Source of the DNA: an uncultured Desulfospira sp.
GTDB lineage: Bacteria; Desulfobacterota; Desulfobacteria; Desulfobacterales; Desulfobacteraceae
Direction: 5' to 3'
DNA length: 64,000 nucleotides
NCBI GenBank assembly: GCA_963663165.1
Contig: OY760175.1
Location: 5,440,001-5,504,000, forward strand
Part shown: one piece after another, positions 19,152 through 43,600 of the stretch
Numbering within the stretch: the stretch's first letter is position 1
Layout: every line of letters starts with the position of its first letter
The notes under the pieces: model-generated
What the model saw: only the letters and a program-made list of their open reading frames with translations
Database searches by the model: none
What the model was told of the DNA's origin: nothing
Program-made: the position numbers and the translations under genes

Positions 19152-19224
19152 AAGACCTCCAATCTTTACTTTGACTACGGAATTCAATAGGCGTCCTTTA
19201 AAATTATTTTTCGAAATAAGTGAC

Positions 19225-19455
19225 TCAAAAGACAATCGAACCTTTCAAAAGGGAAATCTGCCATTCGTTAAAATCCGGCAGTTTTTCAGGGATGATGTCC
19301 AGATTTGGGACCTCAAGGTAAGTTTTTATGCAGGACGACAGGGTGCCGTCCATATCCCCGGCGTCCACACGGGCCAGGGCATGGTTAAAAAAATCCGCTA
19401 CCAGGTTGATATCCTCAAAGATCCGCTCCAGGCTGCCCGTTGCAATCAGGTTCAT
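19225..19455 (-). CDS. Hypothetical protein, 76 aa (MNLIATGSLE...)
   Basis: ATG 19455 overlaps the TGA of the reconstructed upstream gene (ATGA coupling). Confidence 0.55.
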   Translation of the reverse strand: MNLIATGSLERIFEDINLVADFFNHALARVDAGDMDGTLSSCIKTYLEVPNLDIIPEKLPDFNEWQISLLKGSIVF

Positions 19456-19584
19456 GGAAGTCGGCCCTGGGTCAAGGCCTTCAGGGCCTGATTCATGCCT
19501 CCCATGAAAAAGAAATTCTTCCGCCATACAGATACCGGCTGCCGGGCTCTGTCTACCTCTATGACCGCAAATGACGGTTGGTAT

Positions 19585-21339
19585 TTATTTTGCATCTGCT
19601 GGACAAAACAGCGTTGAGATTTTTACCGTTAATTCAGTATCCCTTATCATTTTTTTGATCCCCGGGAATATTTTGCAATTGTTTTCAGCCGCCTTGGTCA
19701 GCTCTTTTTGTACCAGATCAGCATCAATTTGTGAAAACCTTTCTGCCAGGTTGGAACATCCATTGAGAATAATCTCCATATACTTGTCGTTTTTTAAATT
19801 TTGCACCAGCGGCGTGTCGGCAAGGACCGCTTTTAGCATTTTGTTCAGCGATCCCATGCCGGTTTTTTTCCGACCTCGTCGTTTTTCATCCCGGAAAAAT
19901 CTCTCCAGAAGGTTATTCGTCCTCTGTGGTTGGACCGTAAAAATTCCGTCCGATGTGACGACTGGTATCGGGTCGGCAAAGAGCTTTTCCCAGTATTTGT
20001 CAATCTGTGCCACCATGTTAGCATAGGTTTTTTGTCTGTGTTTATTCTCAAGGAGCCAGTTCCTGAATTCAGTCACTTTTTCTTCAATACTTTTCATGTT
20101 CATGGAATCGCCATTATCATTAATGCCATTTTTGCCATCAGGAAGGGCAATTCGCATAGCACAACGCAGCTTGTCAAATACGGCTGCCTTTGATTCCATG
20201 TTTTTGGCAAGATCATTAAGACGCTTATCTTCTACGACTTTTATGACTACTTTATATAATTGGGAAAAGGCTCTGTTTAAATTTGCTGCCTCACTGAGGT
20301 TCACGGTCATGATTTGTTCCAGCAACCGGAGAACATCTTGAAGACGTCGATAAAAATCAAGGTATGGACGGTCAAAAGGGAAACCATATCCGTTGGATTG
20401 ATTTGGATAGTCAAATATCCAATGGATTAAAGCATATGCCATAATCGTGGGGATATGATCGAAATCAGTTGCCTGCCAATTCCCACTTTGAAGGCTCTCA
20501 ATAATTTCATCAATATCCTTGCCGACCGGATCAATTTTTTTCTCAAGATACTTGGCCTGCCTCCTCAATGCAGGTCGAACCTTGAGTTTCTTTAACCGTT
20601 TCTGCAAAAAACTATATTCATCAGCTAGCAGGTCTTTGCCAATGTCACGCAGGAAATGAAAATGACATATAAAATCGGGTGTCCCTGGGAAAACTTCCTC
20701 CACCGCACTGACAATCCCTTTACCCATATCGTGTACGAGTGCCCTTGGTTCACCATACTGCTCTTTGATGCTACGGAAAAATGGGATGAGCTCATCTTTT
20801 TTCTCTGAAGAAATTTTTACCGTATCAAGGACCAGTTCTGAGAGTCCGTCAAGGCCGCAAAATAGATTGGGGCTATCACCTTCACAAGTTCCATCCACAT
20901 GAAGGATATATCCTCCCCTGCTTGTGAAGAACTTTCGCAGAGCCGGCCGGCTCTGTCGGTGAGCCAGGGCAAGATAAATGATAAACTTACGGCCCAGAAA
21001 GCTGATCTCCCGTTCAGAGATGAATACATTCTTGATCGCCAATTCAGCCATGACCTCCTGATTGCTGAGACAACGGACAAAAAGTGCAAACCCCACCTCC
21101 ACAATGACATCAAACCCGAAAGTGCCGCCCCTGGGTACAAGGTTTCGAAGCTGTTCGGACCTGAACGTTCCGTGACCGTGGGGGCAATACAATACCGTTT
21201 CCTTGGCAAAATAGGCACCGATGTCCATGGTGACCCTGGTCTTCGTATCGGTTTTCTGAACATGGAGTGTAGAATTACAATCAGGGCATTTTAAAATTTC
21301 CGGGTAAAAATGCAAAGTCGGCTTTGCTGAGAATAGCAC
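19585..21339 (-). CDS. Transposase catalytic ORF (OrfB)
   Basis: CPDC...CPHGH Zn ribbon, LHVDGT, LVHDMG, CHFH and RTNNLLERFFR. Confidence 0.85.
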   Translation of the reverse strand: MLFSAKPTLHFYPEILKCPDCNSTLHVQKTDTKTRVTMDIGAYFAKETVLYCPHGHGTFRSEQLRNLVPRGGTFGFDVIVEVGFALFVRCLSNQEVMAELAIKNVFISEREISFLGRKFIIYLALAHRQSRPALRKFFTSRGGYILHVDGTCEGDSPNLFCGLDGLSELVLDTVKISSEKKDELIPFFRSIKEQYGEPRALVHDMGKGIVSAVEEVFPGTPDFICHFHFLRDIGKDLLADEYSFLQKRLKKLKVRPALRRQAKYLEKKIDPVGKDIDEIIESLQSGNWQATDFDHIPTIMAYALIHWIFDYPNQSNGYGFPFDRPYLDFYRRLQDVLRLLEQIMTVNLSEAANLNRAFSQLYKVVIKVVEDKRLNDLAKNMESKAAVFDKLRCAMRIALPDGKNGINDNGDSMNMKSIEEKVTEFRNWLLENKHRQKTYANMVAQIDKYWEKLFADPIPVVTSDGIFTVQPQRTNNLLERFFRDEKRRGRKKTGMGSLNKMLKAVLADTPLVQNLKNDKYMEIILNGCSNLAERFSQIDADLVQKELTKAAENNCKIFPGIKKMIRDTELTVKISTLFCPADAK

Positions 21340-21389
21340 ACTAGTTTGGACGGACCCAGTCAGCTTGGAGATAAAGCTTTTGAGCAGTT

Positions 21390-22055
21390 TTAATGCTTGG
21401 AATCCGGAATTTTTTTTAACAACTCATGAGACTCCATAAATCCTTGGATATTAGCCGGCTTTAGTTTGCTCTTTTTGATCTCCGGCAAGCCCAAAATGTC
21501 TTCTGCGGATATGCCATGATGCCTGATAATAGCAACCAGAATCATGACTGCTTCCTGGTCAGAAATGGAAATAGCCGCTTGACGGAGGACAAGGGAACTC
21601 CTTTGTTTTACTTGATTTTTAAATATTGAAATGTTGTCAGAGAAGTAGACATAGACACCAGCGTGCTTTTCTCGACAGATACCCGGACAACTACGGAAAT
21701 GATGCACAAAGGATTGTGGTGATAACCCAAGAAGTTCACCAAGTTGTCTGCCGGTAAGCCCTTCAGATGAGGAGTTCACTAAATGGATAATGGTTTTTTT
21801 TAGATTACCATACTTAGAGAACGCGGCATTTTTAAATTGCCATATACCATAAACGTCAAATTGAGGGATTTCAGGCAAAGTATAATACTTCCCGTTTTGA
21901 TTGTAACTTGTGTAGGTCTTCCACTGTTTAAGTTTTGTTTGGGCAGTTCTGGAGGAACAATCCAGAATTGAAACAAGCTTTTTGAGGGTAAAAATTTTTT
22001 GTTTTTTAAGCGTTGATCTGGCCGATTCAATTTTTTGAACGTCGATAATAGGCAT
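21390..22055 (-). CDS. IS OrfA (probable HTH protein)
   Basis: Lies inside the IRs; HTH-like segments such as GLTGRQLGELLGL; start ATG 22055 with GAGG RBS. Confidence 0.7.
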   Translation of the reverse strand: MPIIDVQKIESARSTLKKQKIFTLKKLVSILDCSSRTAQTKLKQWKTYTSYNQNGKYYTLPEIPQFDVYGIWQFKNAAFSKYGNLKKTIIHLVNSSSEGLTGRQLGELLGLSPQSFVHHFRSCPGICREKHAGVYVYFSDNISIFKNQVKQRSSLVLRQAAISISDQEAVMILVAIIRHHGISAEDILGLPEIKKSKLKPANIQGFMESHELLKKIPDSKH

Positions 22056-22355
22056 GACAACCTCTCTTCGTAGTATATGATATTTGTGCCAAATAATATC
22101 ATATACTACGAAGCAATAACAGGAAAAATAATCCATTTCGCCCAGAATCTTAGAGTTTTTCGATTCAACGACTAAAACATATACTTTGCAAATTGAAACA
22201 AGTTGTATTAATTGAATTAAAAATCAGTTGGTTGAAAAAATCCAACTGTCATTTGCGGTTATAGGTCTACCTGTACCCTTTCAAGGTCTGTTTCGGCGGT
22301 GATGGTACGGCGCGGTTTTCCCCAGATAGAATTAAAAGTGAGTCTGGTTACGTCT

Positions 22356-22643
22356 TCAGGCATGACAACTTTCCTTTACTTTCATTGAGGCAGTTTTTGC
22401 GACACGGGATGACCAGCAGAATATTTTCCCGTCAGATGCCTCAGACCCCAAAGATCGAGGCCGTTTTATGAATTTTACCGGGTGTATTTTAATATGACGT
22501 TGGTACACCCGTTCCTTGAATATGACCTTTTTACAACCGATTATGCTAACTTTGTTGTTCTTTCCTACCAAGTCCCTGAGGTGCTTGTCAATTAATATCG
22601 GCTTGACTTTTTGAGAAACAGGCAATAATTGTATACTTCTCAT
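22356..22643 (-). CDS. Basic hypothetical protein, 95 aa
   Basis: AAGGA RBS-like sequence upstream; follows the ATPase stop and overlaps the next start. Confidence 0.45.
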   Translation of the reverse strand: MRSIQLLPVSQKVKPILIDKHLRDLVGKNNKVSIIGCKKVIFKERVYQRHIKIHPVKFIKRPRSLGSEASDGKIFCWSSRVAKTASMKVKESCHA

Positions 22644-22657
22644 TAAAAGCAGTCCTT

Positions 22658-25162
22658 TCAGGCGTATGCCTGCCAGACGGCACGGCGATGCCGAATTTCC
22701 CTGTCAATGGCTGCAACATCCATCCCGTATTTCAGCGATGACGCTCTTTTTATTCCGGCAGCAATGCTTTCGTCATACCGGGTGTCATCCAGTACTGTCT
22801 CTAGGCTGAAAGGCGCAAGGGCGTTATTTTTTGTCTGCATCCGGACGTAAGCATGCCAATTGGGCAAAGAGATGATATCCTGCTTATCAAATACCGGTGA
22901 AAGTGAAACAGCCATCTCTTTTGCATCCTCCTGCCCAAGACGGAATATGGCAATCTGGCCTACATTTCCAAGAACGGCTGAAAGCAAATTATTCCGGGTG
23001 TTTTTGCCTCTGTTTTTCAACTGACCGGCATACTGGGTGGACAGAACAAGTCCCAACCGGTACTTCCGGGCCTCGGACAAAAGTTCCATAAAATTTTCAG
23101 CCGGAAGGTTGTGGGCTTCATCCACATAAAGAAAAAAGTCCCGGCGCTCTGACGGCGGCATTACAGCTCTTTTCATGGCAGCCAGTTTAAACCGGCTGAC
23201 AATCATGTTGACCAGGAACGCGGAGACCATGCTGCCAAACCGGCCCTTGCCCAGCTTCATTAAAAAAATTTTCCCCTGGTCCAGAATCTGTTCAAAACTA
23301 AAAGTGGTGTGTGACTGGCCGACAATTCTTTTCAGGACGGTATCCTGGAATCGTGAAAATTTGGAAATGACATAAGGCGCGATATTGGCAAGGGTAGCCT
23401 CGCCCCCGGCCCGTTCCGCCTGCGCCAGGAAATCATGGAGCTGATAATCATCCACTGTGGACTTAAGATAATCCCTGAATTCTTCATCCAGGAAAAAGGT
23501 GGGGAAATCCAGTATGGTGGGCGTAAAACCAGCCCTTTTTTTGTCACCCATCAATAATCCCATCGCCCCCCTGAAGTACTGCTCAAAAATAGGCCCCCCG
23601 GTCTGGGAGAGATCGTAACTATGGTGAATACACTGGTATATTTCATCAACGATAAGATCACGTTCCTGGAGCGTGTTCCATTCCAAAACATTAAAACCCA
23701 TGGGCCTTGACGGTTCAAGAGGATCAAAAAAGATCACGTCATCCGCCCGGTCTTCGGGAATCCGGGCCATGATATTATCAATCATATCCCCGTGAGGATC
23801 TATGACAGCCACACCTTTGCCGTTTTGAATATCCTGAACAATCATATTGCTCATCTGCGTGGATTTGCCGGTGCCTGTCTGCCCAATGATAAAGCTGTGC
23901 CGGAACCGGTCCTCATTGTTGATTCGAACAGGCTTTTGCCTCCCCTGGTACGTGTTCATACCAATGAGGACATCATCTGCGGCCAGGGGGTTTTCTTCGA
24001 TCATGGATAAAGCACTCCGGAATTTTTTTACCGGGAATCCGGGCGGGATCTCTTCAAAAGGAGGATTGGGCAGCCGGAAAGCACAGGAGGCCTCAAGGGC
24101 GGAGAACGGTTCAATGCTTTTTGGGATGTATTGCATTTCAACAGCGTTCTCAACACGGATCTGTGAAATCCGTGTGCCTGATTTCCATAAAGGATTCTGC
24201 TCGGAACGGCCTGACGGCCCGGTGATGGAATCGGCCAGAAGCTTGCCTAAAAACCCGTCCGGCTGACCGGCAGTCAACAGAAATACGCCAAGATCAAAGC
24301 TGCCCTCTGAAAGCTGATTCATCCGGTCAAGGATTTGCCTGCGAATGTCATCTGCCTGCTCTCTTAACGTCACATTATTATTAAACTTCATGTCCAGAAA
24401 CCGGTCGCACTTTTTTATCTTTTCTTCCATATTCCCGATATTTTTTGCAGTGAGCGCATGCTGCCTGATTCTGATGATAATTCTGACCGGATCAATATGA
24501 CTGAGCATCACATTCATCAGGGTGGACCAGTCGTCATCTGATGGGTACCAGGAAAAAACATGGCGAACCATATAGTTTTCTGAACCGCCAAAATTGTCGG
24601 CGGCCGGGGCGGTATACCCGATTCTGCCCGGGGAGAACGGGGCTTGCAGACAGACCTTTTCCGTCTTCCGATGGATCATCAGGGCAGAGTGAAACGGCGT
24701 TGTATTTGTTATCAGCATCACTTTCCTGTGATCGGAAACCACCCGGAAATCCGCTTCAGGGAAACATGAGGACAGAAGCGGCTTAACACTTAAGAAAGTT
24801 GCAATGATTTTTTCTTTAACTGTCTGTTCACTGGCATTCTTACAATGGATGGCCAATGCAATTTCCAGCCTGTTTCCTGCCGGATCACTCAGGCTGGGAA
24901 AAGAGGTCATTATCAGCTCCAGGGAAACTGATTTATCAAGGAACGACAAGGACCGGGTGAATGCAAGCCGTTTTTTCTGCAGATTGGCAGGACTGATCCT
25001 GTTAAGGGCTGCAATGCGGCTGTCCCTGACCTGTGAATCAATCATCAAAAGTTCTCCCTGGAGAATAGAATCCAGACGCAGCAGGGCCGTACCCTCAAAC
25101 GCATCCTTTGCTTTTCGGATCACAATTGCCGGGAAAAATGTCAATGGTTTCTCCTTATACAT
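22658..25162 (-). CDS. HerA/FtsK-superfamily ATPase (VirB4/VirD4-TraG-like)
   Basis: RHSFIIGQTGTGKST, VIDPHGD, LYVDEAH and SEARKYRLGLVLSTQ. Confidence 0.88.
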   Translation of the reverse strand: MYKEKPLTFFPAIVIRKAKDAFEGTALLRLDSILQGELLMIDSQVRDSRIAALNRISPANLQKKRLAFTRSLSFLDKSVSLELIMTSFPSLSDPAGNRLEIALAIHCKNASEQTVKEKIIATFLSVKPLLSSCFPEADFRVVSDHRKVMLITNTTPFHSALMIHRKTEKVCLQAPFSPGRIGYTAPAADNFGGSENYMVRHVFSWYPSDDDWSTLMNVMLSHIDPVRIIIRIRQHALTAKNIGNMEEKIKKCDRFLDMKFNNNVTLREQADDIRRQILDRMNQLSEGSFDLGVFLLTAGQPDGFLGKLLADSITGPSGRSEQNPLWKSGTRISQIRVENAVEMQYIPKSIEPFSALEASCAFRLPNPPFEEIPPGFPVKKFRSALSMIEENPLAADDVLIGMNTYQGRQKPVRINNEDRFRHSFIIGQTGTGKSTQMSNMIVQDIQNGKGVAVIDPHGDMIDNIMARIPEDRADDVIFFDPLEPSRPMGFNVLEWNTLQERDLIVDEIYQCIHHSYDLSQTGGPIFEQYFRGAMGLLMGDKKRAGFTPTILDFPTFFLDEEFRDYLKSTVDDYQLHDFLAQAERAGGEATLANIAPYVISKFSRFQDTVLKRIVGQSHTTFSFEQILDQGKIFLMKLGKGRFGSMVSAFLVNMIVSRFKLAAMKRAVMPPSERRDFFLYVDEAHNLPAENFMELLSEARKYRLGLVLSTQYAGQLKNRGKNTRNNLLSAVLGNVGQIAIFRLGQEDAKEMAVSLSPVFDKQDIISLPNWHAYVRMQTKNNALAPFSLETVLDDTRYDESIAAGIKRASSLKYGMDVAAIDREIRHRRAVWQAYA

Positions 25163-25672: not shown

Positions 25673-26194
25673 TCACCTGACCGGTTTACCGGATTTAATG
25701 ATCTTCGGGTGTTTCCCGTACACGTCGGCCGGGATAAAAACGCAAGACTGCCCCGGAGATTTAACAGACTGGTACTTTATGGCCTTTCCTTTTTTTGCGG
25801 CTGCTGCTCCCATCTTTCCCCCGAGTTTTGGGCCGATGACATTTTTTTTTACAGTGCCCCTCAAATCTTTGTACTTTACCTGTTTTTTGATGCTGGCAGG
25901 GGTGGGCTTTCTCATATTGATTGTATTGTTCTTCAGGTAATTGCTTTCCTTGAATCTGATTACGGCATCAGCGGCTTTTGATTCCACTTTTGCGGTTTTC
26001 CCTTTAGGGGCCAGATACACCCCTTTGCCGAATCTGGCGGCGCTTTTCATTTTTGCTCGGCTGAAGCCTTTCTGCAGAATTTTCCTGGCTGCCGCTTTCC
26101 GGGTGGCGTGAAATAAAAACGCATGGCAGGGCGCATGGTACAGCCCGGCATCCAGCAGCATAATACAGGCCAAACACAGCATTGATCGTTTCAT
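25673..26194 (-). CDS. Signal-peptide-bearing RES/ADP-ribosyltransferase-fold protein
   Basis: MKRSMLCLACIMLL...CHA signal-like N-terminus; LFHAT...KGF...RFGKGVYLA...TAKVE...IKYQSVKSPG; GGAGG RBS. Confidence 0.6.
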   Translation of the reverse strand: MKRSMLCLACIMLLDAGLYHAPCHAFLFHATRKAAARKILQKGFSRAKMKSAARFGKGVYLAPKGKTAKVESKAADAVIRFKESNYLKNNTINMRKPTPASIKKQVKYKDLRGTVKKNVIGPKLGGKMGAAAAKKGKAIKYQSVKSPGQSCVFIPADVYGKHPKIIKSGKPVR

Positions 26195-26313
26195 TGGATT
26201 CCTCCTTCCATTCAAGGTTTTGATTCAAGGTTTTGATGCCCCCTTATTTTAATTCTTCACCTGTAACAGAATATACGGAGATGATTTTTTAAATTTCAAA
26301 AAAATCTTGTGAG

Positions 26314-26757
26314 TCATGGCTGCAAGTCTTCCCAGAGTTCCCTGGCCTCATCAATCCACCCCTCACATTGTTCCTGGGTGAACTCATCCATGGGAATCCG
26401 CGTGACCCAGTAATTAAATTTCCGCAGCCGTTTCACCATGGCAGGCCCCCGGGTCTGGTTGACGGAATGAACCAGTATGGGCACATCATTGGGAATGTGA
26501 CGGATCAGGGTGTCCACCACCGTCATCCCGGTTAAAAGCTGATCGGCATCATTCACCGTATGTTCCTGGAGATCATGATCCAGCATTATCCCGGCATATA
26601 CATGGCCTTTGTCCCTCCGGATTAAACCGATTGCCTTGCCTGCACTGGTAACGACCACAGGCCTTGCATCCGCAGGCAGCCAGGCTTTAAGCAAATTGGC
26701 CCGCTCAATATTATCCTCCACGATAAGAATGCGAAAAAACCGCTTTGGTCCGGCCAT
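26314..26757 (-). CDS. Cyclic-phosphate-processing receiver (cREC)-like protein
   Basis: ILIVED...IMLDHDL...TGMTVV...ILVHSVN; LDHDL and HSxN are characteristic of this receiver clade. Confidence 0.7.
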   Translation of the reverse strand: MAGPKRFFRILIVEDNIERANLLKAWLPADARPVVVTSAGKAIGLIRRDKGHVYAGIMLDHDLQEHTVNDADQLLTGMTVVDTLIRHIPNDVPILVHSVNQTRGPAMVKRLRKFNYWVTRIPMDEFTQEQCEGWIDEARELWEDLQP

Positions 26758-26929
26758 ACCTTTTCTCCTGTATTTTAAAATCCGAGGAATTGAGGGGGGG
26801 GTGATAACATACGCCAGGCACATCAACTGATGCCTGGCATATGTTCTTTATTCCTGGCAGCGTCCTGGAGCAGATGCCGTCATTATGATAAGAGATACGG
26901 AGATGTTTTTTGAAAATTAAAAAATCAGA

Positions 26930-27271
26930 TTAACGCCTTCTTCCAAATCCGAGTATACGTCCCAGGATTTTAAACGGCAGAACAATCAGCTCAAAAATTA
27001 TCATGCTGGCCACCCGTTCAAATATCTTTTCGCCCATTACAATCTTTAAGGTTGCGATGACCATCCACACGCATAGCAGCAGGAATGCCCAGAACGGCAG
27101 CATTTCTATAATCTGGCCGATGAAAGGCGCAAGGACGGCGAGCAGACAGACCGTCACTGCGATGGCCCATGCCTTTGACATGCTTATCAGGCCAAGCATC
27201 AGGGCAAAACCAGCACCGACCAAAACCAGAATATATGCCTCTTCCGGTATGACCATCCAAAGTGTCTGCAT
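26930..27271 (-). CDS. Small membrane protein
   Basis: 113 aa with about four hydrophobic helices; AGGAG RBS. Confidence 0.7.
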   Translation of the reverse strand: MQTLWMVIPEEAYILVLVGAGFALMLGLISMSKAWAIAVTVCLLAVLAPFIGQIIEMLPFWAFLLLCVWMVIATLKIVMGEKIFERVASMIIFELIVLPFKILGRILGFGRRR

Positions 27272-27299: not shown

Positions 27300-27473
27300 T
27301 TACCGATTCTTTTTTGCATTATCCCGGCCAGACTTGTAAGTATCTCTATCGGCTTTGTTTTTCGGAGGTCTGTAATGGGGGCTTGACCCTCCGGATCGGA
27401 TAATATCCACGAAACTGTCGTTCCTGCTTTTCTTTTGATCCTGCTGCCCTTTCTTGTGATAATCTCTTCCCAT
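27300..27473 (-). CDS. 57-aa basic hydrophilic protein (MGRDYHKKGQQD...AKKNR), below the ORF-track cutoff
   Basis: Manual translation; GAAGGG RBS; preceded by the shared TCCGTA motif. Confidence 0.55.
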   Translation of the reverse strand: MGRDYHKKGQQDQKKSRNDSFVDIIRSGGSSPHYRPPKNKADRDTYKSGRDNAKKNR

Positions 27474-27782
27474 TTTGTTTCCCTTCTTTTTTGGGTAGTT
27501 TGCTCTCTAATAAGAAATGTATTCTTGACCTGGAGATATATACGGAAGTGTTTTTCAGATTTTAAAAAAATAATTTGTAACTATTTAGCTAATTCTGAAA
27601 AATAAGCAAAAATCAGGGCCTGTAACTGTTGATCATTGTTTGACATGAAATTTTTACCAGATGAAAAGGCATCTGCATCCCTTCCACGGTCTTGATTCGG
27701 ATAATAGTTTAGATACCATTCATCTATTAACTCTTTGACGGATTTTACAATCATGAAAATAAAGATTTTATTTTAGACCCAG

Positions 27783-30086
27783 TCACCACCGGCTAAGATA
27801 AGGCTTGTAACTCTTTTTGCCATACAGATATTCCCGAAGCGTCACCGCCTGCTGAAACAGCACCTCCTGCAGGGTCTTTCGCCCGCCTTTGTGGCTGACT
27901 TCCGTCCCCAGCCGGGCCATGGTGGCTCCCGCCATTTTTTTGCAGCACTCTTTTGTTAAGAGGCCGTCCCTGCGCTGTTCAATTTTTCCACCCCTGTTCA
28001 GCATGCTGATAACTGTCCGGTCAATCACTGGTGCCCGGAATTCCTCCACCAGATCGTAAGTAAGGACAGGTTTGCCCGGCTGGTAGGAATGAAGAAAGCC
28101 GGCGGCAGGGCTGAGTCCGGCTTTGATAACAGCATTTAACGCTTGGGAATAAAGGATGCCATATCCGTAATTGAGCAGCGAGTTGACCGGATCACCAGCC
28201 CCTCTTCGTTTCCGGCCCGGGAAATTAACCTCACCGGGAAGGATATGGGAAATGAGACGCCAGTATCTAGTGGCAAACGTGCCTTCCAGCCCCATAATTC
28301 CATTTCTGAAGTTCCGGGGAGCCCGGCCTTCCGTCTTTAGCGAGCTAATTTTATGGATGAGACGTTCAAGCTGCGCCCTTTCGTGTTCAAAAGCCGCCTT
28401 GTACCCGTTGTCCCTTTTTTTATATTTTCCGTATGATTTCAACAGGGCGAGCTGATTTTTTGTCTTGCCCCAGATGAACATCCTGGCCAGTTGCAACCCT
28501 TCTGAATGATCCTTGAGTGCCACCTGTTTCTGGATCGTTTCCGCCCGGAGACCGGCAGGATGCTGCAAAACGGCAGTAATGGTGCCAAGGCCGTTAATTA
28601 TATGAAACGGAATATCCTTTTCAGCACAATGATGCAGGATATTTGTTGACACAGAAAGGGCGTGTTCTGCAACAGTGATGCCTTTCAGTTCCGAGACCGG
28701 CACTTCAGATACAATCTTTTGCTTTTGCCGGACAACAACCCGATTGGACTGAAGACCGATATAATGACCCGGGCTGAGGACAAAAATCTCGCCCCCGGCC
28801 ACCTGCTTGCGCTGAAACTGCCTCCTTTTGACATTGGCTTTTTTATCTGCCTGTTTAATTGGCTGCTCTGATGTTAAAGCCTTTCGGCCCTCTTTCCAGA
28901 TGGCCACCAGCTGTGCCTTTTTTTCTTTTCCCGAAAGACTGTATTCCGAGGCAGGCAGCGGCAGCCGCAGATGGGGCGGCGGGGTCCTGGGCCATTTCCC
29001 CTGCTTCAGCCGGTGCTGCACAAGCCGTTCAAACAGGGAGATCAGTTTTTTCTCAATGAATAGAAACTGCTCGCCGGAACCCAGGAACCCATAATGAAAC
29101 TGCCAGCCTTTGACCGATTGTTCAAGGCGGGCAAACACCTCTTCCAGGCCAAGGCGGCTATTGGGAGAAAGAAGATAACCAAGTTTTCCCAGCATTTTGT
29201 TCTGCTTTTTTTCGCTGATGCGCCGGTCTTCACCTTTAAAATAAATTCCGAGAAAGTCAAAGCCCCCGGCAAGACTCGCAACCGGTGATTTATTTTCGTT
29301 CAGCTGCAGTGACAGTTTTTGGGAAAGGAACGCCTTGACCGCGAGATCCGCCTCTATGGCCTGTTTCTCGTGCGCGCACTGTAAGACATAATCATCAGCG
29401 TAACGGACCCATCCCCATTGTTTTTCCCTGACAAAGAGATCCAGTTCATGAAGATAAAGATTGGCAAGCAGCGGTGAAATAACCTGCCCCTGCCGAACCC
29501 CCTCTTTAACATCTTTCCATTTTCCGCCCCTGGCGACAATGCCGGAACGGCACCACAGCGCCACCAGATCCACAACTGTTTTCTCCCCGCCCACCAGGTT
29601 GCTGAACAATGATATAAGCAGGTCATGATTCAACCGGTCAAAAAAGTTATCAACATCCTGACGAACCACCCACTGCAGCTTTCCGGCATTGAGATTATGC
29701 TCCACCCGGCGGATGGCACGGTAATGACCTTTGCCTTTTCTATAGGCATAACTGGTGTCCAGGAACAGTTTTTCCGCCAGGGGTTCAACAACCTGGAGCA
29801 ATGCTGTCTGCACAACTTTATCAGCAACAGTGGGCAGTCCGAGATGGCGCCACTCTTTTTTTTCATTAAATTTCGGGGTGCGGACCTCCTGAACCGGCTC
29901 CGGGGTGTATCTGCCGGCTGAAATATCCTGTCTCAGCCGGCGAAGATTTTTATGAAGGTCTTTTTCAAATGAATCAACACTGACTTTATCCACGCCGCCC
30001 AGGGAGCCTTTTTTCCTCACCCGGCGAAAGGCGCCAAGCAGGTTGGATTCATCCAGAAAGGCATCAGTAATGGTACCTGTTCTCAT
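27783..30086 (-). CDS. cas1: Reverse transcriptase-Cas1 fusion
   Basis: RT motifs LGLPTVADKVVQ, DVDNFFD, GVRQGQVISPLLANLYL and RYADD; Cas1 motifs GLEG, NSLLNYGY, GFLH and DLVEEFR. Confidence 0.96.
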   Translation of the reverse strand: MRTGTITDAFLDESNLLGAFRRVRKKGSLGGVDKVSVDSFEKDLHKNLRRLRQDISAGRYTPEPVQEVRTPKFNEKKEWRHLGLPTVADKVVQTALLQVVEPLAEKLFLDTSYAYRKGKGHYRAIRRVEHNLNAGKLQWVVRQDVDNFFDRLNHDLLISLFSNLVGGEKTVVDLVALWCRSGIVARGGKWKDVKEGVRQGQVISPLLANLYLHELDLFVREKQWGWVRYADDYVLQCAHEKQAIEADLAVKAFLSQKLSLQLNENKSPVASLAGGFDFLGIYFKGEDRRISEKKQNKMLGKLGYLLSPNSRLGLEEVFARLEQSVKGWQFHYGFLGSGEQFLFIEKKLISLFERLVQHRLKQGKWPRTPPPHLRLPLPASEYSLSGKEKKAQLVAIWKEGRKALTSEQPIKQADKKANVKRRQFQRKQVAGGEIFVLSPGHYIGLQSNRVVVRQKQKIVSEVPVSELKGITVAEHALSVSTNILHHCAEKDIPFHIINGLGTITAVLQHPAGLRAETIQKQVALKDHSEGLQLARMFIWGKTKNQLALLKSYGKYKKRDNGYKAAFEHERAQLERLIHKISSLKTEGRAPRNFRNGIMGLEGTFATRYWRLISHILPGEVNFPGRKRRGAGDPVNSLLNYGYGILYSQALNAVIKAGLSPAAGFLHSYQPGKPVLTYDLVEEFRAPVIDRTVISMLNRGGKIEQRRDGLLTKECCKKMAGATMARLGTEVSHKGGRKTLQEVLFQQAVTLREYLYGKKSYKPYLSRW

Positions 30087-30103: not shown

Positions 30104-30379
30104 TTAAATGATCGTGTCATATTTTTCCTTTTTGATGCCGCTCTGCTCTCTTTGATCCGCACATTTCCCGCAAAGGAAATAGTAGAGGACGGAATCCTGC
30201 CCGGAGTTGATAATGGCTTCAATCTTTTTTTTCAGGGGGAAAATTCCGGATTTTCGGATGCGGCATTCAAAAACAGAATAATTCACCCGGATGCCATATC
30301 CCTTAAGCAGCTTGACAAGTGCATTCCGCCTTTTATTGCTGGCAACATCATAGGCAATCACCACATACTGTTTTGACAT
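30104..30379 (-). CDS. cas2: Cas2
   Basis: VIAYDV...RR...GYGIRVNYSVFEC...DSVLYYFLC. Confidence 0.95.
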   Translation of the reverse strand: MSKQYVVIAYDVASNKRRNALVKLLKGYGIRVNYSVFECRIRKSGIFPLKKKIEAIINSGQDSVLYYFLCGKCADQREQSGIKKEKYDTII

Positions 30380-30651
30380 GTTGAATCACTCCGGCCTTTT
30401 TCTCGTGTTAAACCCGTTTCTCTTATTTTTTACGGAGCCGGCCGACTGTTTTTAAAATAATTTTGAACTGAATGGATTAAATGAAATTTATTGGGGGAGG
30501 AGGAAAATCTTCTTGAACAAGCCAGGGCACTATCACCAAAGCCTGTTAATTTAGCTTTTCAAGGTCACCGTACATGATGCATGCGTTTAAATATGCCCGT
30601 TCAGCATAACTGCCTTTGCCTGACTCACGATAAAGGCGCCTCAGGCCGCCT

Positions 30652-31640
30652 ATCTTAATCCTCTCTAATCGAGGCAGTCTTTCTGACGCAGAGGTGCTAT
30701 ATATGTTCGCGGAACGCTCTTGAAGTCTTAATCCTCTCTAATCGAGGCAGTCTTTCTGACTTGACCTTCGTGCCCGGTTTCGGCTGGTTAAAAAGTCTTA
30801 ATCCTCTCTAATCGAGGCAGTCTTTCTGACGAAAAGCCGGGTTTTACCACAACGGGTTGTTTGATAGTCTTAATCCTCTCTAATCGAGGCAGTCTTTCTG
30901 ACCAAAAGAATGTATGGCCCAGGGGATTGTGGCAGAAGTCTTAATCCTCTCTAATCGAGGCAGTCTTTCTGACTTAGGGGATTTGTCAAAAGAACGGGTA
31001 AGGCCCCATGTCTTAATCCTCTCTAATCGAGGCAGTCTTTCTGACTTCCAGGGATTAGATTTTAAAGGCTATGAAATTGAGTCTTAATCCTCTCTAATCG
31101 AGGCAGTCTTTCTGACGAAAAAATGGAAGACCGACTGTTACAAAAATATAAGTCTTAATCCTCTCTAATCGAGGCAGTCTTTCTGACCTGGTAACCTTCA
31201 TCGTATGATCAATAATGTCGAATCGTCTTAATCCTCTCTAATCGAGGCAGTCTTTCTGACAAGTTCATGGCACCGCCAATCCTAAATTGGACAAAGTCTT
31301 AATCCTCTCTAATCGAGGCAGTCTTTCTGACCACTTAATGTGTATTTCGTTGGGCTTGAGATTGGTATGTCTTAATCCTCTCTAATCGAGGCAGTCTTTC
31401 TGACAAAAAATTATTTTTTGTGACAAAAAATTATTTTTTGATACAGAATTAAGCAAAGCGTCTTAATCCTCTCTAATCGAGGCAGTCTTTCTGACTGCTA
31501 AATTAAAAAATACCTTAAATTATTTGTATTGGTCTTAATCCTCTCTAATCGAGGCAGTCTTTCTGACTAAATTCGAACATCGGGATGGTTGTAAACAAAC
31601 GTGAGTCTTAATCCTCTCTAATCGAGGCAGTCTTTCTGAC
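30652..31640 (-). CRISPR. CRISPR array 2: 14 repeats (GTCAGAAAGACTGCCTCGATTAGAGAGGATTAAGAC) and 13 spacers
   Basis: Repeats start at 30652 (one mismatch, trailer end), 30725, 30795, 30867, 30938, 31010, 31081, 31152, 31225, 31296, 31369, 31460, 31532 and 31605. Confidence 0.98.
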
Positions 31641-31840
31641 TCTGGGTATCTGGAACGCTTGTCCGGCAAGGCTTTTCAAGGCCGTTTTGCCGGACCTACC
31701 TTGTTTTCGGGTTTCGGAAAAAAATTTCACACTTAAATGCAGGCTGTTTTTTGTATAACACTTTGATTTTAAATACGATACAAAAATGCCGGACCTCTTT
31801 TGGATTTTTTGCGAACAAATTGTCAAAGATCGATAAGGCC
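31641..31840 (-). promoter_or_regulatory. Leader of array 2
   Basis: 200-bp non-coding stretch between the cas2 fragment and the first repeat; IHF consensus AATCAAAGTGTTA at 31756-31768 (minus strand). Confidence 0.75.
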
Positions 31841-32041
31841 TCATGACACGGAATACGCCTTTGTATTGGGCAGATTCCCGGTGCCGGAGAATTCAACATG
31901 CCCTACGCAATGCCTGCAAAGCGGGTAATGCCGGATGGTGTCCTCCCCATGGTCAATGAATTCTTCCAAATCGGACTGCATCTTCATAAATTTATATTCG
32001 GTCATGTTGGCGCATTCGAACACGGATTTCTGGACCCGGGT
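31841..32041 (-). pseudogene. cas2: 5'-truncated cas2 copy
   Basis: 201 bp with 14 mismatches (hand count) to 32814-33014; lacks the N-terminal metal-binding Asp strand. Confidence 0.9.
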
Positions 32042-32070
32042 CTCATCTATGTCAATATGATCTCAAATCT

Positions 32071-32813: not shown

Positions 32814-33092
32814 TCATGACACGGAATAGGCCTTTGTATTGGGCAGATTCCCGGTGCCGGAGAATTCAACATGCCCGACACAATGCCTGCAAAGCGGGTA
32901 ATACCGGATGGTATCCTCGCCATGGTCAATGACCTCTTCCAGGTCAGACTGCATCTTCATAAATTTATATTCGGTCATGTTGGCACATTCGAATACAGAT
33001 TTCTGGACCCGGGTCCCGTACCCTTTCAGGATTTTCACTACCCGGTACCGGACCCGGTTGTCAACTATGTCAAAGCAGACCAGGAAAAACAT
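32814..33092 (-). CDS. cas2: Cas2
   Basis: FLVCFDIVDNRVR...GYGTRVQKSVFEC...DTIRYYPLC. Confidence 0.95.
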   Translation of the reverse strand: MFFLVCFDIVDNRVRYRVVKILKGYGTRVQKSVFECANMTEYKFMKMQSDLEEVIDHGEDTIRYYPLCRHCVGHVEFSGTGNLPNTKAYSVS

Positions 33093-39023: not shown

Positions 39024-39571
39024 TTTTCATCTCCTTGAATGGTAAATCTGCATCTGCCAAGGCCCCGGTTCCGGCCAAGCCCCATCCGCCTGGTAAAGGC
39101 AAGACAGTCCCTGATTTTATCCATATGCACATCCTTAACCCCTGAGATGCTGAAAAACAGGGATGCCGGGATAGTGGTTTGAATTTTTCTTAATGTTTTA
39201 TTCATGGCAACACCACTCTCATCAATGGCTGTGGATGATATTTTCCTGTATAAGAGGCTGGACATGTCATTTTCTTTAATGGCCTTTTTCAATTTTATGG
39301 TCATTTCCGCATTGGAAAAATGACAATCCCCCTGTCTTGTACCTTCTATGCCAAAGCAGGCGTCAATGAAATCAGTCCATTCCCGGCTGCCGGAAAACGC
39401 AGCCAGGGTTATGGCGCTGTCTTTGAGCAGTCCTTTCAGTGTCTTGCCTGGGATATAAGGGAAATGGTCCATATCTTTCAGCACAAGTGCGTCAAGATCT
39501 GTTCCCGCAGACATGCCGGATCCCGCATGCCAGTCTGAAAAAAAACTAATTTTGCATGTTATTGTCGTCAT
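39020..39571 (-). CDS. csm3: Cas7-group RAMP (Csm3-like), module B
   Basis: WHAGSG, PYIPGKTLKGLLK, TAID and MGLGRNRGLG; start ATG 39571 (GGAGGAG RBS). Confidence 0.87.
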   Translation of the reverse strand: MTTITCKISFFSDWHAGSGMSAGTDLDALVLKDMDHFPYIPGKTLKGLLKDSAITLAAFSGSREWTDFIDACFGIEGTRQGDCHFSNAEMTIKLKKAIKENDMSSLLYRKISSTAIDESGVAMNKTLRKIQTTIPASLFFSISGVKDVHMDKIRDCLAFTRRMGLGRNRGLGRCRFTIQGDEK

Positions 39572-40997
39572 GATCAATCTCCTCCAGGGAACAAATGGCC
39601 AGAACATCATGAAAAATAGTTCTGCCTTTTTTAAACGGGTTTTCAAGACCAAGCTTCATTACATAATTTTCAGAGGTTATTTCCCTGATCCGGGTCAGCA
39701 GAAAATCTGCGTTCCCGGGGTCGTCGTGAAGGGCGGACAGCCATTTGCGCAGCCCGGATTTGGGGGCACCTGGTTCTTTAATAAGCCTGACCTTGTCTTG
39801 CAGTTCTTTAATTGAAATCAATGTATCCGGTACATGGTCATCAATCCCATAGGGGCCGTACTGAAGGGAGTTATCTCCGGCGGTCAGTTCTCTTTTTGTG
39901 ATGGTGGCGTAATCATCTACAAAACTAGAATGTACTTTATGAAACATAAGGCTGGCTGCAACCTGATCCGAGCCTGATTGCCGGGATTTAAGCTTTGCAA
40001 AGGCGCATAACTGCTCCGCCATATCAACACCATAATGGAAAGGAAAGCTGTCCTTAATATAGGCTATGCCGGCACATGCTGTGATCCGGTTTTCCTTGCC
40101 GAAATGAAAGGCTGTCAGGTCCTGGAAATTTTTCAAAAATGATTGTGTGAAGTCCAATGCCAGGTCCGCCCTGCAGATAACAGTCAGGTCATCACCGCCA
40201 AGCACAACCGGTCGAATTTGATATTCTTCTCTATTGTTATTTTGGAAATCTCTTTCTATTACAGCATCAAATGCGGCCTGGGCAGCGCCTATCGTGGATA
40301 GATCCAGTTTTTCCGAAAATTCACTGAACTGTTTGACATTAAATTCATTCCGGGCACTATTCATTCGCTGGATGGTTCTTCCCAGACTGTTACCGTCGGC
40401 GTGGATCACCGCCACCCAGGAATTAACACCTGAAATGTCTTCCATATTTTTTGAAAAATTTTTCCCGGATTCTTTTGCAAGTTTTTGGACCAAGGTCGTC
40501 TGCTCTTTTTCAAATTTAAGTTTTGCCCTGGTGCTGTTATCAAGAAATTCCCGATCAAAATAGACAGCCGATTTACCGGTCCGGGGAGCCCTTGTTATTG
40601 CCAGTCCGGAAACATCCAACTGCGGAAATGCCCGATTCCTTTCTGATTTCAGTTTATCCTCAAGCACATTGATATGAGTACTGGATATCTGATCCCCGGC
40701 TTCGACCTGGGTAAGCTCCACCACCGCCTGGGATATGGTGATGCCCGGTGCTGTTTCCATAACGGTTTTAGGAAACAGGCGGACAAGCTTTTCCAATCCC
40801 TGCCGTTCCTTGGAAAACAGTTTGATATTTCCGGCAGCTTTTAAGAGGATCTCCACGTCATTATCAATGAATTTTTTAAAAAGCCGTGTGGAAATATATT
40901 CCACGATCTCGCTTGCACCAATGACCTCTCTGAGCCGGTCAGTTTCAAATATAAACCCCTGAATCCCCTGAACTGCCGCTCCGTATAAATATCCCAT
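39546..40997 (-). CDS. cas10: Cas10, compact HD-less with intact GGDD, module B
   Basis: VQGIQGFIF, HADGNSLG, VLGGDDLTVI and TACAGIA. Confidence 0.93.
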   Translation of the reverse strand: MGYLYGAAVQGIQGFIFETDRLREVIGASEIVEYISTRLFKKFIDNDVEILLKAAGNIKLFSKERQGLEKLVRLFPKTVMETAPGITISQAVVELTQVEAGDQISSTHINVLEDKLKSERNRAFPQLDVSGLAITRAPRTGKSAVYFDREFLDNSTRAKLKFEKEQTTLVQKLAKESGKNFSKNMEDISGVNSWVAVIHADGNSLGRTIQRMNSARNEFNVKQFSEFSEKLDLSTIGAAQAAFDAVIERDFQNNNREEYQIRPVVLGGDDLTVICRADLALDFTQSFLKNFQDLTAFHFGKENRITACAGIAYIKDSFPFHYGVDMAEQLCAFAKLKSRQSGSDQVAASLMFHKVHSSFVDDYATITKRELTAGDNSLQYGPYGIDDHVPDTLISIKELQDKVRLIKEPGAPKSGLRKWLSALHDDPGNADFLLTRIREITSENYVMKLGLENPFKKGRTIFHDVLAICSLEEIDHDDNNMQN

Positions 40998-41036
40998 GAT
41001 GTGCCCTCCTGTTCGGATTTAAAAATGAAAATTCAT

Positions 41037-42266
41037 TTATTCTTTATCCATTCGTTTGAGCCGTAATGTCTCAAGAAGCGTTTTTATATCAAGTATCTCC
41101 ATTATTTTTTCATTTTCCCTGTCTGCCTGCTCCGCAGATATCATTTTCACCTTGTTTTTCTTACCTTTTTGAATAAAAACCGAATGGGGCTGACCAGTAA
41201 CTGCCAAAAGTTTGCTTTTTAGCTCATTCAATTTAAACGGCTGCAGTCTTGCTTCTTTACCCTTGTCTCCATAAGCGGTCCAGAACGCTTCATCTTCCAG
41301 ATCTTCCTTCATGTATGGAATTATCAACCAGAACTGTCCGTATACACCGGTGGCTCTTTCCAAATTATATAATCGGGCGTCCTCATCCTTTTGTCCAAAT
41401 TGTCCTGTTTTAGCATCCAGAATAATCAATGTTCCAAAGTCAGTCACAAGGACTATGTCCCATTCGGCAATTTCGACTCCCCGGCCGTCCTTAACCCGAA
41501 CATTTGCCCAGGCTTCATTTACATGATGTGCTTCAGGGTTTTCTGCCAGTATCTTTACCACCTCAAACTGTACGACCCGCTCAAAATAGTCAGCAAATCC
41601 TTTTGGATATTTTTCAAGCAATGACGGTTTTTCGCCTTCATGGGTTAGACTCCATTCGATCAGTTTTTTTCTGCAGTTTTGATCCCAAAATTCGTTTACA
41701 TCAGCATACTCAGGAATTTCATGAGAAGGCTGCATCTGTGTAGTTCGTTTCCACAACAGGCAAGGGGTATTATTTTTTTGCTGATCTAAAGCGAATATTT
41801 TTAAGATCATCTCAATATTAACTGCCGTATTAAGGGAGACAGCCCGGCTCAACAAATTTGCTCCGTCACTTGTTATTTTAAAAATTTTTCTACTTTGGGG
41901 ATCTGCATAACAGGCCCAATCAGCCAATCCGCATCCTAACCTTTCATGAAATACCCTGAAAGAAGCCAACTGCTGCATTTTCTGACCACCTCCAATATTC
42001 CAGCAAACTGGACGGTCTGAATCAACAGCCCCCTTGATTTGCGGAAGCATTTCCTCCAGTTCTGTTCCCTCACCTATAGGGCAGACCAATACTTTTTTCC
42101 CCTGATCTTCCACAACCGTACGAATACCTTTCGACCATTCCTCCTTGGCTGCGAAGTTTGTCTCCAATAAAATCAGAAGGTCCATATCAAACTGTAAAAA
42201 CGGCAAAATATTAACTGTATTCTGCCTGGTGGAAATGCACACCATTGCTTTGGGTTCTTGTTCCAT
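41037..42266 (-). CDS. CARF plus PD-(D/E)xK nuclease effector, Card1/Can2 (DUF1887)-like
   Basis: CARF-like N-terminus (NIGGGQKM) and C-terminal EWDIVLV...IILDAKTG. Confidence 0.78.
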   Translation of the reverse strand: MEQEPKAMVCISTRQNTVNILPFLQFDMDLLILLETNFAAKEEWSKGIRTVVEDQGKKVLVCPIGEGTELEEMLPQIKGAVDSDRPVCWNIGGGQKMQQLASFRVFHERLGCGLADWACYADPQSRKIFKITSDGANLLSRAVSLNTAVNIEMILKIFALDQQKNNTPCLLWKRTTQMQPSHEIPEYADVNEFWDQNCRKKLIEWSLTHEGEKPSLLEKYPKGFADYFERVVQFEVVKILAENPEAHHVNEAWANVRVKDGRGVEIAEWDIVLVTDFGTLIILDAKTGQFGQKDEDARLYNLERATGVYGQFWLIIPYMKEDLEDEAFWTAYGDKGKEARLQPFKLNELKSKLLAVTGQPHSVFIQKGKKNKVKMISAEQADRENEKIMEILDIKTLLETLRLKRMDKE

Positions 42267-42377
42267 TCATCAGCCCCTATTGTTTCCCTTATTTCATGGG
42301 TTGTTTATACTCAAATATGTAAACCAACTCAGATAGTTTACCCTATAAAATCTATTTAACTTTTTGTTTTCATAGGT

Positions 42378-43313
42378 TTATATTGTCTCATCCACCTCAA
42401 TCATCCCTAGCCCGAAAAACGTATTCTTCCCCGCGTGGACGATCCGGGCCATGTCAAGAAAGGGCATGAAGGGGCCAAGGTTTCCCTGGTAGGAGATCCG
42501 GCCCACCAGGCCGCCCATGGCCATTTTTTTGTCCTGGCGGGCGGAGTAGCGCTGCCAGTCGAACCAGGACAGGCTATTGTCCGTTACCTTGATCTCGCCG
42601 GCTTTTCTGACCAGCTCCGGGTAATCCAGATCGGGCTCTCCATTGCCATAGGTGTTGAACAGGGCCGTACACCGCCGGACCAGGGAGCGAATCAGCAGGT
42701 CAAAGGGCAGGTCGGGGGGATTTGTGGGGTTCCCGTTTACCCTGAAAGGGGTTTTGATGTTAAGGGTGATCCGGTCCGTGTCCCGGTCCGGACAGCCGGA
42801 AAGGGTGAATTCCGGCAGGCAGGACGGCAGGGTGACGCGGCCGTCCTGTCTCGTGTAGACCGGCTCTCCTTCATGGGTGACGGATTCAAGAGTGAAACCG
42901 GCCCGCCGGCCCTGAACCTTTTTGCCCAGGCCGATCTTGCCCATCTGGTCAAAGGCGTAAATAAAATAGGGCAGGTTTTGGTTAAGGGCTCCGAAAAGAA
43001 CCAGGCCGCAGTTAAGAAATTCTCCGGATGCGAAATCGGTTTTCAGGGTTAAGGGCGGCTCTAAGACCATGGGGCAGGGTGGTGCCGATATCCGGCTGTT
43101 TTCAGGGGCCGGCAGGGCATGGGCGGTTTCAAAGACCAGGGCGTAGGTACAGCTGGACCTTAAAATGCACGAGGGGCACGCCTGGTTTTTAAGGGCGCAG
43201 ACGGTTCTCTTGAGTGCATGGCCGAAAAGGCCTCTGAAGGTGGAGCCTTTGTACCGGGGAAGGGACGCATCCCGGTTGAGCTTGATCTGAAAAGTGTAGT
43301 TTCCGTATTCCAT
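42378..43313 (-). CDS. cas6: Cas6 pre-crRNA endoribonuclease
   Basis: GSTFRGLFGHALK, CPSC..C Zn cluster and C-terminal HAGKNTFFGLG. Confidence 0.93.
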   Translation of the reverse strand: MEYGNYTFQIKLNRDASLPRYKGSTFRGLFGHALKRTVCALKNQACPSCILRSSCTYALVFETAHALPAPENSRISAPPCPMVLEPPLTLKTDFASGEFLNCGLVLFGALNQNLPYFIYAFDQMGKIGLGKKVQGRRAGFTLESVTHEGEPVYTRQDGRVTLPSCLPEFTLSGCPDRDTDRITLNIKTPFRVNGNPTNPPDLPFDLLIRSLVRRCTALFNTYGNGEPDLDYPELVRKAGEIKVTDNSLSWFDWQRYSARQDKKMAMGGLVGRISYQGNLGPFMPFLDMARIVHAGKNTFFGLGMIEVDETI

Positions 43314-43600
43314 AAGATAAGGTTCCCGTTCAAAAAGGGTTGTTGTCTCTTTTTTACTTATACGGAGTTCGACAGATTGGTTTTAAAAAAAAATTACAAT
43401 CCGGCTTGTACAAAACAAAACTGCTTGAAGCTGATAGGAAATTAAGAACAATTTTGTTTGTTCTGCTTAATCATCTTTTGCTTGGCGTGTCAACAATTTA
43501 TGGAAGCTTCGTAGCATACTTTTGCTATGTGAGAAGGCCTTAAATGAGCGAAGATGGGGCACTGCTGAACAGTTACAATCCGTTTTGATCAGCGTCAGGG

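Follow-up and report, generated by a model that had tools for sequence, protein, structure and literature searches.

Protease-released sigma factors are an established output of type III CRISPR systems, and three described examples come closest to the locus considered here. In the first, CalpL, a type III SAVED-Lon protease, acts together with the anti-sigma factor CalpT and CalpS, a sigma factor of an extracytoplasmic function (ECF)-like kind (10.1101/2024.05.08.593097, PMC11229360, PMC12751052), and CCaCalpT is cut within a LAAA motif (bioRxiv 10.1101/2024.05.08.593097). In the second, CASP-sigma reads TCACAT-N14-CGAC at three sites in its own locus (PMC10028731, table S2). In the third, DdvS of Myxococcus xanthus, four promoters of the form GTAA-n16-CGT were mapped by 5′ rapid amplification of cDNA ends (PMC6061681). 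For all of these publications, what is said here and below follows the portions of text that were available to us. The subject of the present analysis is a 64,000-nucleotide (nt) stretch of the genome of an uncultured Desulfospira sp. (the window; G000:C1:5440001-5504000), which encodes two multi-subunit type III-D modules, and a bipartite motif that recurs upstream of the genes of this defence island. The closest hits are to Desulfospira, Desulfobacter and Desulfobacula, and the host is likely a sulfate reducer. The motif is likely a −35/−10 promoter read by a sigma-70-like protein of 349 amino acids (aa) encoded in the same island, which would be held by a zinc anti-sigma factor until the latter is cut by a Lon protease. 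Such a system would function in the manner of CalpL/T/S, CASP-sigma and DdvS/DdvA without belonging to any of the three, having no detected SAVED, no Cas7-11/CHAT and no TPR-CHAT anti-sigma.

One bipartite motif at the gene heads of the island

A preliminary description of the window had reported TACGGA on the + strand at positions 19176, 26274, 26896, 27541, 30431 and 43361, and all six copies are present. The second element was said to be TT(T)YAAA after 14-15 nt, and the literal form N14-15-TTTYAAA fits only two sites; the looser TACGGA-N13-17-TTYAAA is found at five of the six, with 0.06 expected and none of 100 shuffles reaching five. Because site 26896 has TTAAAA, the element is better written TTHAAA on the + strand. 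The intragenic copies of TACGGA that had been checked were said to lack the second element; it is absent from the other nine of the 15 copies on the + strand and from all 14 on the minus strand. The distances to the start codon, put at 25-140 bp, measure 24, 79, 138, 67, 51 and 47 nt. The six sites are intergenic as described, with the proviso that site 19176 is so only if the cas10 ATG at 19151, which is preceded by GGAGG, is used and not the upstream TTG at 19235.

The sites and the genes behind them are all on the minus strand, and each site consists of a hexamer, N15 and TCCGTA. Site 1 (19166-19202; TTTAAA; predicted +1 A at 19166) stands before type III-D module A, beginning with a cas10 gene whose GGDD is intact (17577-19151). 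Site 2 (26264-26300; TTTGAA; predicted +1 at 26264) heads the ART-like gene (25673-26194, ATG at 26194; PARP match, E 4e-5), site 3 (26886-26922; TTTTAA; predicted +1 at 26886) heads the cREC gene (26314-26757, ATG at 26757), and site 4 (27531-27567; TTTTAA; predicted +1 at 27531) heads the 57-aa gene (27300-27473) together with a 113-aa hydrophobic gene (26930-27271); all three of these sites are kept in the related genome G023. Site 5 (30421-30457; TTTTAA; predicted +1 at 30421) heads cas2 (30104-30379) and RT-cas1 (27783-30086). Site 6 (43351-43387; TTTAAA; predicted +1 at 43351), which is kept before cas6 in relatives, heads cas6 (42378-43313) and type III-D module B, whose cas10 (39546-40997) likewise has an intact GGDD. 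The gene labels ART-like, cREC, cas2, RT-cas1, cas6 and cas10 given earlier hold, whereas no RES match was found.

A matrix trained on these six sites alone and scanned over the 6.74-Mb genome, a check that had been proposed with them, ranked three untrained island sites 8, 10 and 17 genome-wide. All three lie within 27 kb to the left of the window, are co-oriented with the others and stand at gene heads: one before a truncated second cas6 (G000:C1:5413621-5413657), one before a TPR/primase-polymerase/cas1 operon (G000:C1:5425810-5425846) and one before the 349-aa sigma-70-like gene (G000:C1:5433746-5433782). The six sites first proposed as a regulon stand, and the tally is nine to ten. The eight non-island matches ranked above 17 fall mostly within open reading frames (ORFs), and a genome-wide regulon was rejected on this ground.

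The nine island sites share a single spacing, TTT[ATG]A[AC]-N15-TC[CT]GTA on the minus strand, and spacers other than 14-16 yield one match in the island over lengths 8-25. In non-coding DNA the strict pattern occurs nine times in the 15 kb of the island and twice in 1,200 kb elsewhere, at AT contents of 57% and 56%, the associated p-value being inflated since the pattern was composed after all nine sites were known. Coding matches number one in the island and 18 elsewhere, and the reversed pattern used as a control gives none and five, respectively. Equal frequency in unrelated intergenic DNA, which the preliminary description had named as the outcome that would speak against a regulon, is thus not what is seen. 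That the sites arose by chance in AT-rich DNA, or are functionless relics of local duplication, is hardly credible. Sites 2-4 do have spacer letters in common and may be local duplicates, and the genome-wide counts are not above those of the reversed pattern; but the spacers of the remaining sites are unrelated, the enrichment persists at equal AT content, the position of the motif is kept at about 22-27% sigma identity, and between this genome and G023 the motif is kept where the flanking intergenic DNA diverges. We regard this explanation as largely refuted by the equal-AT enrichment and by the conservation at anti-sigma heads in distant families described below.

Two columns that no search had constrained bear on the geometry. 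All nine sites have a purine 4 nt ahead of CCGTA and, 10 nt behind it, an A, at a joint frequency of 0.13 in background CCGTA, and among 48 collected sites, some of them orthologues and a few probably matched by chance, the purine is found in 48, the A in 43 and a pyrimidine before the A in 37. The full form on the gene strand is thus TTTDAA(A)-N11-R-N3-CCGTA-N9-A. If the A is taken as +1, TTTRAA(A) falls between −36 and −30 and CCGTA between −14 and −10, and a −35/−10 layout of that spacing is the layout of alternative-sigma promoters. A weaker tenth candidate (5762-5798, minus strand; TTGAAAA-N11-G-N3-CCGTA), whose score ranks tenth in the island, has both of these unconstrained columns; it lies inside the 3′ end of an AAA gene, about 200 nt ahead of coiled-coil/PP2C/vWA/kinase genes.

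Among the described promoters, those of DdvS are the closest in geometry, the island form being AA(A)-n16/17-CGT. The −35 letters differ, and the island motif has extra invariant positions (CC and the purine), while several distant relatives have exactly GTAA-N16-CGT. The island motif does not fit the CASP motif TCACAT-N14-CGAC. What the two loci have in common, as far as the available text of PMC10028731 goes, is a protease-released sigma, predicted in the present case, several copies of the motif in its own locus, including one before cas1, and almost no strong sites elsewhere; they differ in that the type III-E system has a TPR-CHAT protease acting on Cas7-11 and three sites, whereas here there are III-D modules, a Lon protease and nine sites that include interference genes.

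The same letters might be read in another way, namely as housekeeping sigma-70 promoters in which CCG and the purine are contacts for an island activator, possibly the 349-aa protein itself acting through its sigma-4-like domain and not as a sigma factor. With an 18-nt spacer TA opens all nine hexamers and TAT six of them, site 26274 has a sigma-70 promoter score of 10 of 12, the sigma-2 evidence for the 349-aa protein is weak, and basal expression would be supplied. Against this, the final T of the −10 hexamer is present in just two of the nine sites and in 11 of the 48 collected ones; the sites do not share a TAnnnT hexamer at 16-18 nt, the shorter spacers giving no TA start; the CCGTT variants seen in some relatives lose the TA start; CCG occupies the place of the usual TG extension of sigma-70 promoters; and the adjoining zinc anti-sigma-like gene and Lon suit a sigma factor. 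We therefore consider activated sigma-70 promoters unlikely.

The sigma-like, anti-sigma-like and Lon genes

A dedicated sigma factor encoded outside the window had been predicted, and a strong candidate lies 6.3 kb to its left with a copy of the motif upstream. It is the first gene of a trio on the minus strand, 6.3-10.6 kb left of the window, in which the sigma-like gene is followed by an anti-sigma-like gene, a Lon protease gene and then a CARF gene. The first encodes the 349-aa sigma-70-like protein with a sigma-4 domain (G000:C1:5432641-5433690; L002:12641-13690), the second a 383-aa zinc anti-sigma-like protein with a CHCC motif (5431476-5432627; L002:11476-12627), and the third a 700-aa Lon protease with a Ser-Lys dyad and a helical C-terminal part (5429389-5431491; L002:9389-11491). 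The preliminary description had suggested looking for sigma/anti-sigma genes accompanied by a CHAT or Lon-SAVED protease; the trio was found, with a Lon protease on which neither CHAT nor SAVED was detected. All three genes are full length in this genome, with the dyad and the zinc ligands intact.

The 349-aa protein is part of an unnamed family, of which 172 cluster representatives are found at E 0.001. Its sigma-4 domain is seen in three ways: 62 of 139 family members match Sigma70_r4_2 (PF08281), the C-terminus aligns with ECF sigma-4 by hhalign (E 4e-10, probability 97%), and the fold resembles that of SigK (Z 7.1, root-mean-square deviation (RMSD) 1.5, 62 residues aligned). The model of the whole protein has a predicted local distance difference test (pLDDT) score of 89 and its top-ranked fold rows are sigma factors; SigL is aligned over 162 of 174 residues spanning both ends of the model, with an RMSD of 15. 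PF04542 is found on 15% of the members of one look-alike Atlas cluster, and a single-sequence search of the candidate against the PDB gave no match. With 349 aa, a folded insert and a C-terminal extension, the protein departs from the ECF definition of sigma-2 plus sigma-4 joined by a short linker. The motif at the head of its own operon is the bipartite, strand-specific, fixed-spacing one, from which start sites are predicted.

In the anti-sigma-like family C17, H35 and C39 are invariant (32/32), C42 is present in at least 90% of the 32, and an LPLAAA motif is conserved. One homologue has an antisigmaE match at E 0.02, and a profile search of the family against the PDB found no real relative. 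The S194/K237 dyad of the Lon protease is invariant in 28 of 28 sequences. No SAVED match was found on the protease in Pfam or NCBIfam, and no CHAT match among the proteins scanned; its TPR label rests on the appearance of the sequence and on a TPR_12 match in a divergent G101 protein.

Compared with CalpL/T/S, as presented in the available text, the likeness is that Lon, anti-sigma and sigma are three adjacent genes in type III loci. The protease shares the Lon core with CalpL (profile match E 3e-6, positions 190-255 only) and differs from it in having no detected SAVED and a 700-aa chain with a helical C-terminal part; as to activation of CalpL by cyclic tetra-adenylate (cA4), both Cas10 proteins here keep GGDD, but no sensor was found on the protease. 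The conserved LPLAAA recalls the LAAA cut motif of CalpT, whereas the N-terminal zinc motif is an addition and there is no sequence match to CalpT, which carries a MazF-like domain and is cleaved between two domains. CalpS differs from the 349-aa protein, which is enlarged by an insert and usually has a MazF-fold fourth gene upstream. For CalpS, the portions of the literature examined name no promoter or target list, whereas nine targets are predicted here. The likeness to the DdvS system is a type III defence island under the control, predicted here, of a sigma and, between the anti-sigmas, a CHCC zinc site (PMC11506125). DdvA, according to the available text, is a membrane protein with a periplasmic TPR-CHAT, in contrast to the 383-aa protein without a TPR/CHAT match and the separate Lon found here, and DdvS is a plain sigma-2/sigma-4 ECF that needs CarD-CarG. 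A literature search, from whose scope subscription papers and preprint supplements largely fell outside, returned no account of the SAVED-less Lon/sigma family or of its motif, and a term search within the ECF classification preprint 10.1101/2019.12.11.873521 gave no passage.

Distribution of the motif and the sigma family in relatives

The sigma family is present in 21 of 161 genomes of the host's family and in 17 of 401 sampled across the phylum, and nearly everywhere the genes stand in the order sigma, anti-sigma, Lon. A Cas10 match (E under 1e-10) occurs in 17 of the 21 genomes with the sigma family and in 25 of the 140 others. In five near-complete genomes, strict matches lie near the sigma-like gene in 6 of 13 cases (G023), 3 of 12 (G043), 3 of 12 (G113), 2 of 15 (G038) and 1 of 6 (G025), where they precede differing cas modules; G113, a member of this genus, shares the three-gene arrangement, and there the motif lies immediately ahead of the sigma gene. 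Of 15 genomes with the sigma family, 12 have the motif at the head of cas6, as against none of 17 with neither sigma type, a comparison in which the relatives are not independent, the motif following the cas6 clade; TPR-primase genes are headed by it in 14 of the 15. These head counts leave out one cas6 that lacked upstream sequence, as well as genes with an unaligned start. Among 16 loci from other families, 11 have the motif no more than 200 nt ahead of the anti-sigma gene, with controls of 0 on the opposite strand, a mean of 0.05 in shuffles and 0.14 in random windows. Over the fetched loci, gene-head matches number 40 in 448 kb with the family and 7 in 506 kb without it (reversed pattern, 0 and 2), and G018, G099 and G100, which have module A orthologues and no family member, show no strict site before cas10.

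A CCGTT variant is found at gene heads in G101, G015 and G021. A divergent sigma-4 protein of 348 aa occurs in only four of the 161 genomes, these three among them; in G101 this protein sits between a Lon/TPR gene and a zf-HC2 gene. The pairing favours co-variation of motif and sigma. A simple split of genomes into those with and without the sigma was dropped, because these three hold the divergent one. The G101 genes (G101:C8, L183:5736-13616; L193-L195) form a second, divergent Lon-TPR/sigma-4/zf-HC2 cassette, which is followed by an unannotated 1165-aa gene, and the att-CCGTT variant stands before cas6 and cas10.

The distribution also bears on whether the sites are read by an alternative sigma factor of the host, FliA or one of its two ECFs, while the adjacent trio does something else. 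Sigma-28 promoters have the layout TAAA-N15-GCCGAT, which the sites resemble; they also resemble the general ECF pattern AA-n16-CGT (PMC6061681, in the part available). The genome holds five sigma-2 genes, and G116 and G126 have the motif although no trio was found there. However, the CCGAT −10 element of flagellin promoters is not shared by the sites: flagellin heads have TAAAG and then [GC]CGATA (two of six flagellin-domain genes) and none has the CCGTA motif. The two ECFs, FliA and a 346-aa sigma have no CCGT[AT] site upstream, the two strict non-coding matches outside the island argue that there is no host regulon, and the motif tracks the trio across families. FliA, the host ECFs and sigma-70 were all judged unlikely readers on the CGATA of the flagellin heads, the absence of a host regulon and the final −10 T in two of nine sites; for a host alternative sigma in particular, we see little likelihood.

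Several observations weigh against the promoter being read by the 349-aa protein, and they concern both the motif and the protein. The two unconstrained columns were chosen post hoc from about 30. Distant families keep the +10 A in only 6 of 26 matches, and the purine is often one base later; given this weakness of the A, the start is predicted only to within a base or two. In the same families the relaxed pattern barely tops the reversed control overall (26 and 19), and in the five near-complete relatives the genome-wide strict totals are not above that control. Motif and trio are co-inherited, the motif-bearing cas6 genes being those closest to the cas6 of this island, and G089 has the sigma family together with a distant cas6 that lacks the motif. 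In genomes without a detected sigma, three of five TPR heads carry the motif (those of G006, G116 and G126); G006 has Lon pieces at contig edges and the other two have none that we found. In the genomes with the divergent sigma, none of the four cas6 heads passes the motif regular expression, and no site was found before their own anti-sigma-like genes. As to the protein, its N-terminus is in register with sigma-2, with a weak score (hhalign E 0.008, probability 5%), and the N-terminal fragment of SigR fits the model with Z 5.5 and RMSD 4.2 over 78 residues. A search of the genome with the Pfam sigma-2 profile (PF04542) did not match it, Foldseek gave the sigma-like model a best E of 0.01 and nothing at E 0.001, and a folded insert of about 105 residues (about 107-215) matched none of three sigma profiles.

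The island and its predicted circuit

In most relatives, at more than 20 loci across the phylum, the sigma-like gene has a fourth gene of about 155 aa ahead of it (an intact example is L011:578-1057, minus strand). Its model (pLDDT 85) has MazF, Kid, CcdB and CptN toxins within its top 12 fold rows, the best match having Z 7.7 and RMSD 2.7 over 86 residues; Foldseek at E 0.001 returned no match for it. This MazF-fold gene may be a fourth component of the switch. In the window, the start of such a gene (22363-22265 and 19562-19455) is split by an insertion sequence (IS) and accompanied by Lon scraps (19464-19246), which share 61-64% identity with proteins of G038 and G023 over 44-45 residues. 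These pieces mark the stretch 19225-22363 (minus strand), in which a 100-aa ORF is not an intact gene, as a collapsed second cassette, and site 19176 comes after it. In G023 the 113-aa, cREC, ART-like and 57-aa genes are found as well, the 57-aa homologue being 70% identical and also behind a motif copy; the motif stands at three matching heads, and this group lies directly before an intact four-gene cassette. Two loci with one shared promoter type appear to have merged in this island.

Such decay raises the question of whether the motif, while being the sigma's promoter, belongs to a circuit that in this strain is constitutive or vestigial and not protease-gated. The MazF-fold gene is broken here and the second cassette has collapsed, and a closed genome, G111 (L060, G111:C1:4382000-4400000), keeps sigma-like and Lon genes, while its anti-sigma gene is split and there is neither a Cas10 match nor a strict site; this cassette is likely orphaned and in decay. 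Nevertheless, the trio here has kept its length and its catalytic and zinc residues, G113 retains the layout and the site before sigma, and the conserved columns are kept at all nine sites. A circuit that has lost its gating is, in our judgement, very unlikely.

In the circuit that we prefer, the anti-sigma-like protein would bind and inactivate the 349-aa sigma until a signal sensed by the helical part of the protease activates Lon, which would cut the anti-sigma near the conserved LPLAAA. The freed sigma would then initiate at the A about 10 nt beyond CCGTA. Raised together would be both III-D modules, cas6, the RT-Cas1/Cas2 and Cas1/primase units, the ART-like, cREC and 57-aa genes and the sigma's own operon, a co-induction that we infer from the sequence. 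Negative feedback would result in the many relatives whose site precedes the anti-sigma gene. Since the motif stands ahead of cas6 and of both cas10 genes, it is likely that the trigger either is independent of CRISPR signalling or depends on basal read-through.

Other genes of the island stand beside or behind the sites. The ART-like protein (25673-26194) has weak PARP and Tox-ART-HYD1 matches and a hydrophobic, signal-peptide-like N-terminus, which is odd for a cytoplasmic defence enzyme. Directly after its gene comes one for an 834-aa HerA/TraD-like ATPase (22658-25162, minus strand), which is not at the matching place in G023 and is possibly co-transcribed from site 26274. The 409-aa gene after cas6 (41037-42266, minus strand) has a weak Card1-type CARF match (E 0.025) and probably encodes a divergent cyclic-oligoadenylate effector. 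A block running on the minus strand from 914-9767 to G000:C1:5435537 holds coiled-coil, radical SAM, double AAA, PP2C, vWA, kinase-like, histidine kinase, receiver and PIN genes; it lies within the island, is flanked by two CRISPR arrays and contains the motif-like site 5762-5798. In G018, homologues of its receiver and PIN genes adjoin the III-D locus. The island has four CRISPR arrays with two related repeat variants, two in the window (9877-10671 and 30638-31646) and two to its left (G000:C1, about 5434000-5435000 and 5419100-5421400), and array 1 has a 219-nt duplication spanning three spacers. The motif is absent from the array leaders among island matrix scores above 10, so the arrays may be read through from motif-driven operons. 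Just before array 2 there is a 202-nt, 93% identical duplicate of the 3′ part of cas2 (31841-32042 and 32814-33015) with a PIN gene between the copies.

A bolder proposal can be offered tentatively, and we hold it to be possible but doubtful. A four-gene switch that is widespread in the phylum, made up of the MazF-fold protein, the enlarged sigma, the zinc anti-sigma and a sensor-less Lon, might run the whole of type III immunity from one inducible promoter; a signal other than cyclic oligoadenylate would enter through the helical domain of the protease, and one cut would free both the sigma and a MazF-like nuclease. The motif would then be a barcode that marks the ART-like, cREC, 57-aa, 113-aa and vWA/PP2C/kinase genes as new defence genes.

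The locus offers an exact promoter, predicted starts, a candidate sigma, anti-sigma and protease and nine predicted targets, so that the regulon lends itself to testing with simple reporters. The interference and CRISPR RNA-processing genes are themselves predicted to be under the sigma, and one may ask what would trip a protease on which no nucleotide sensor was detected. With the conserved motif as a guide, uncharacterised genes of the defence response can moreover be picked out.

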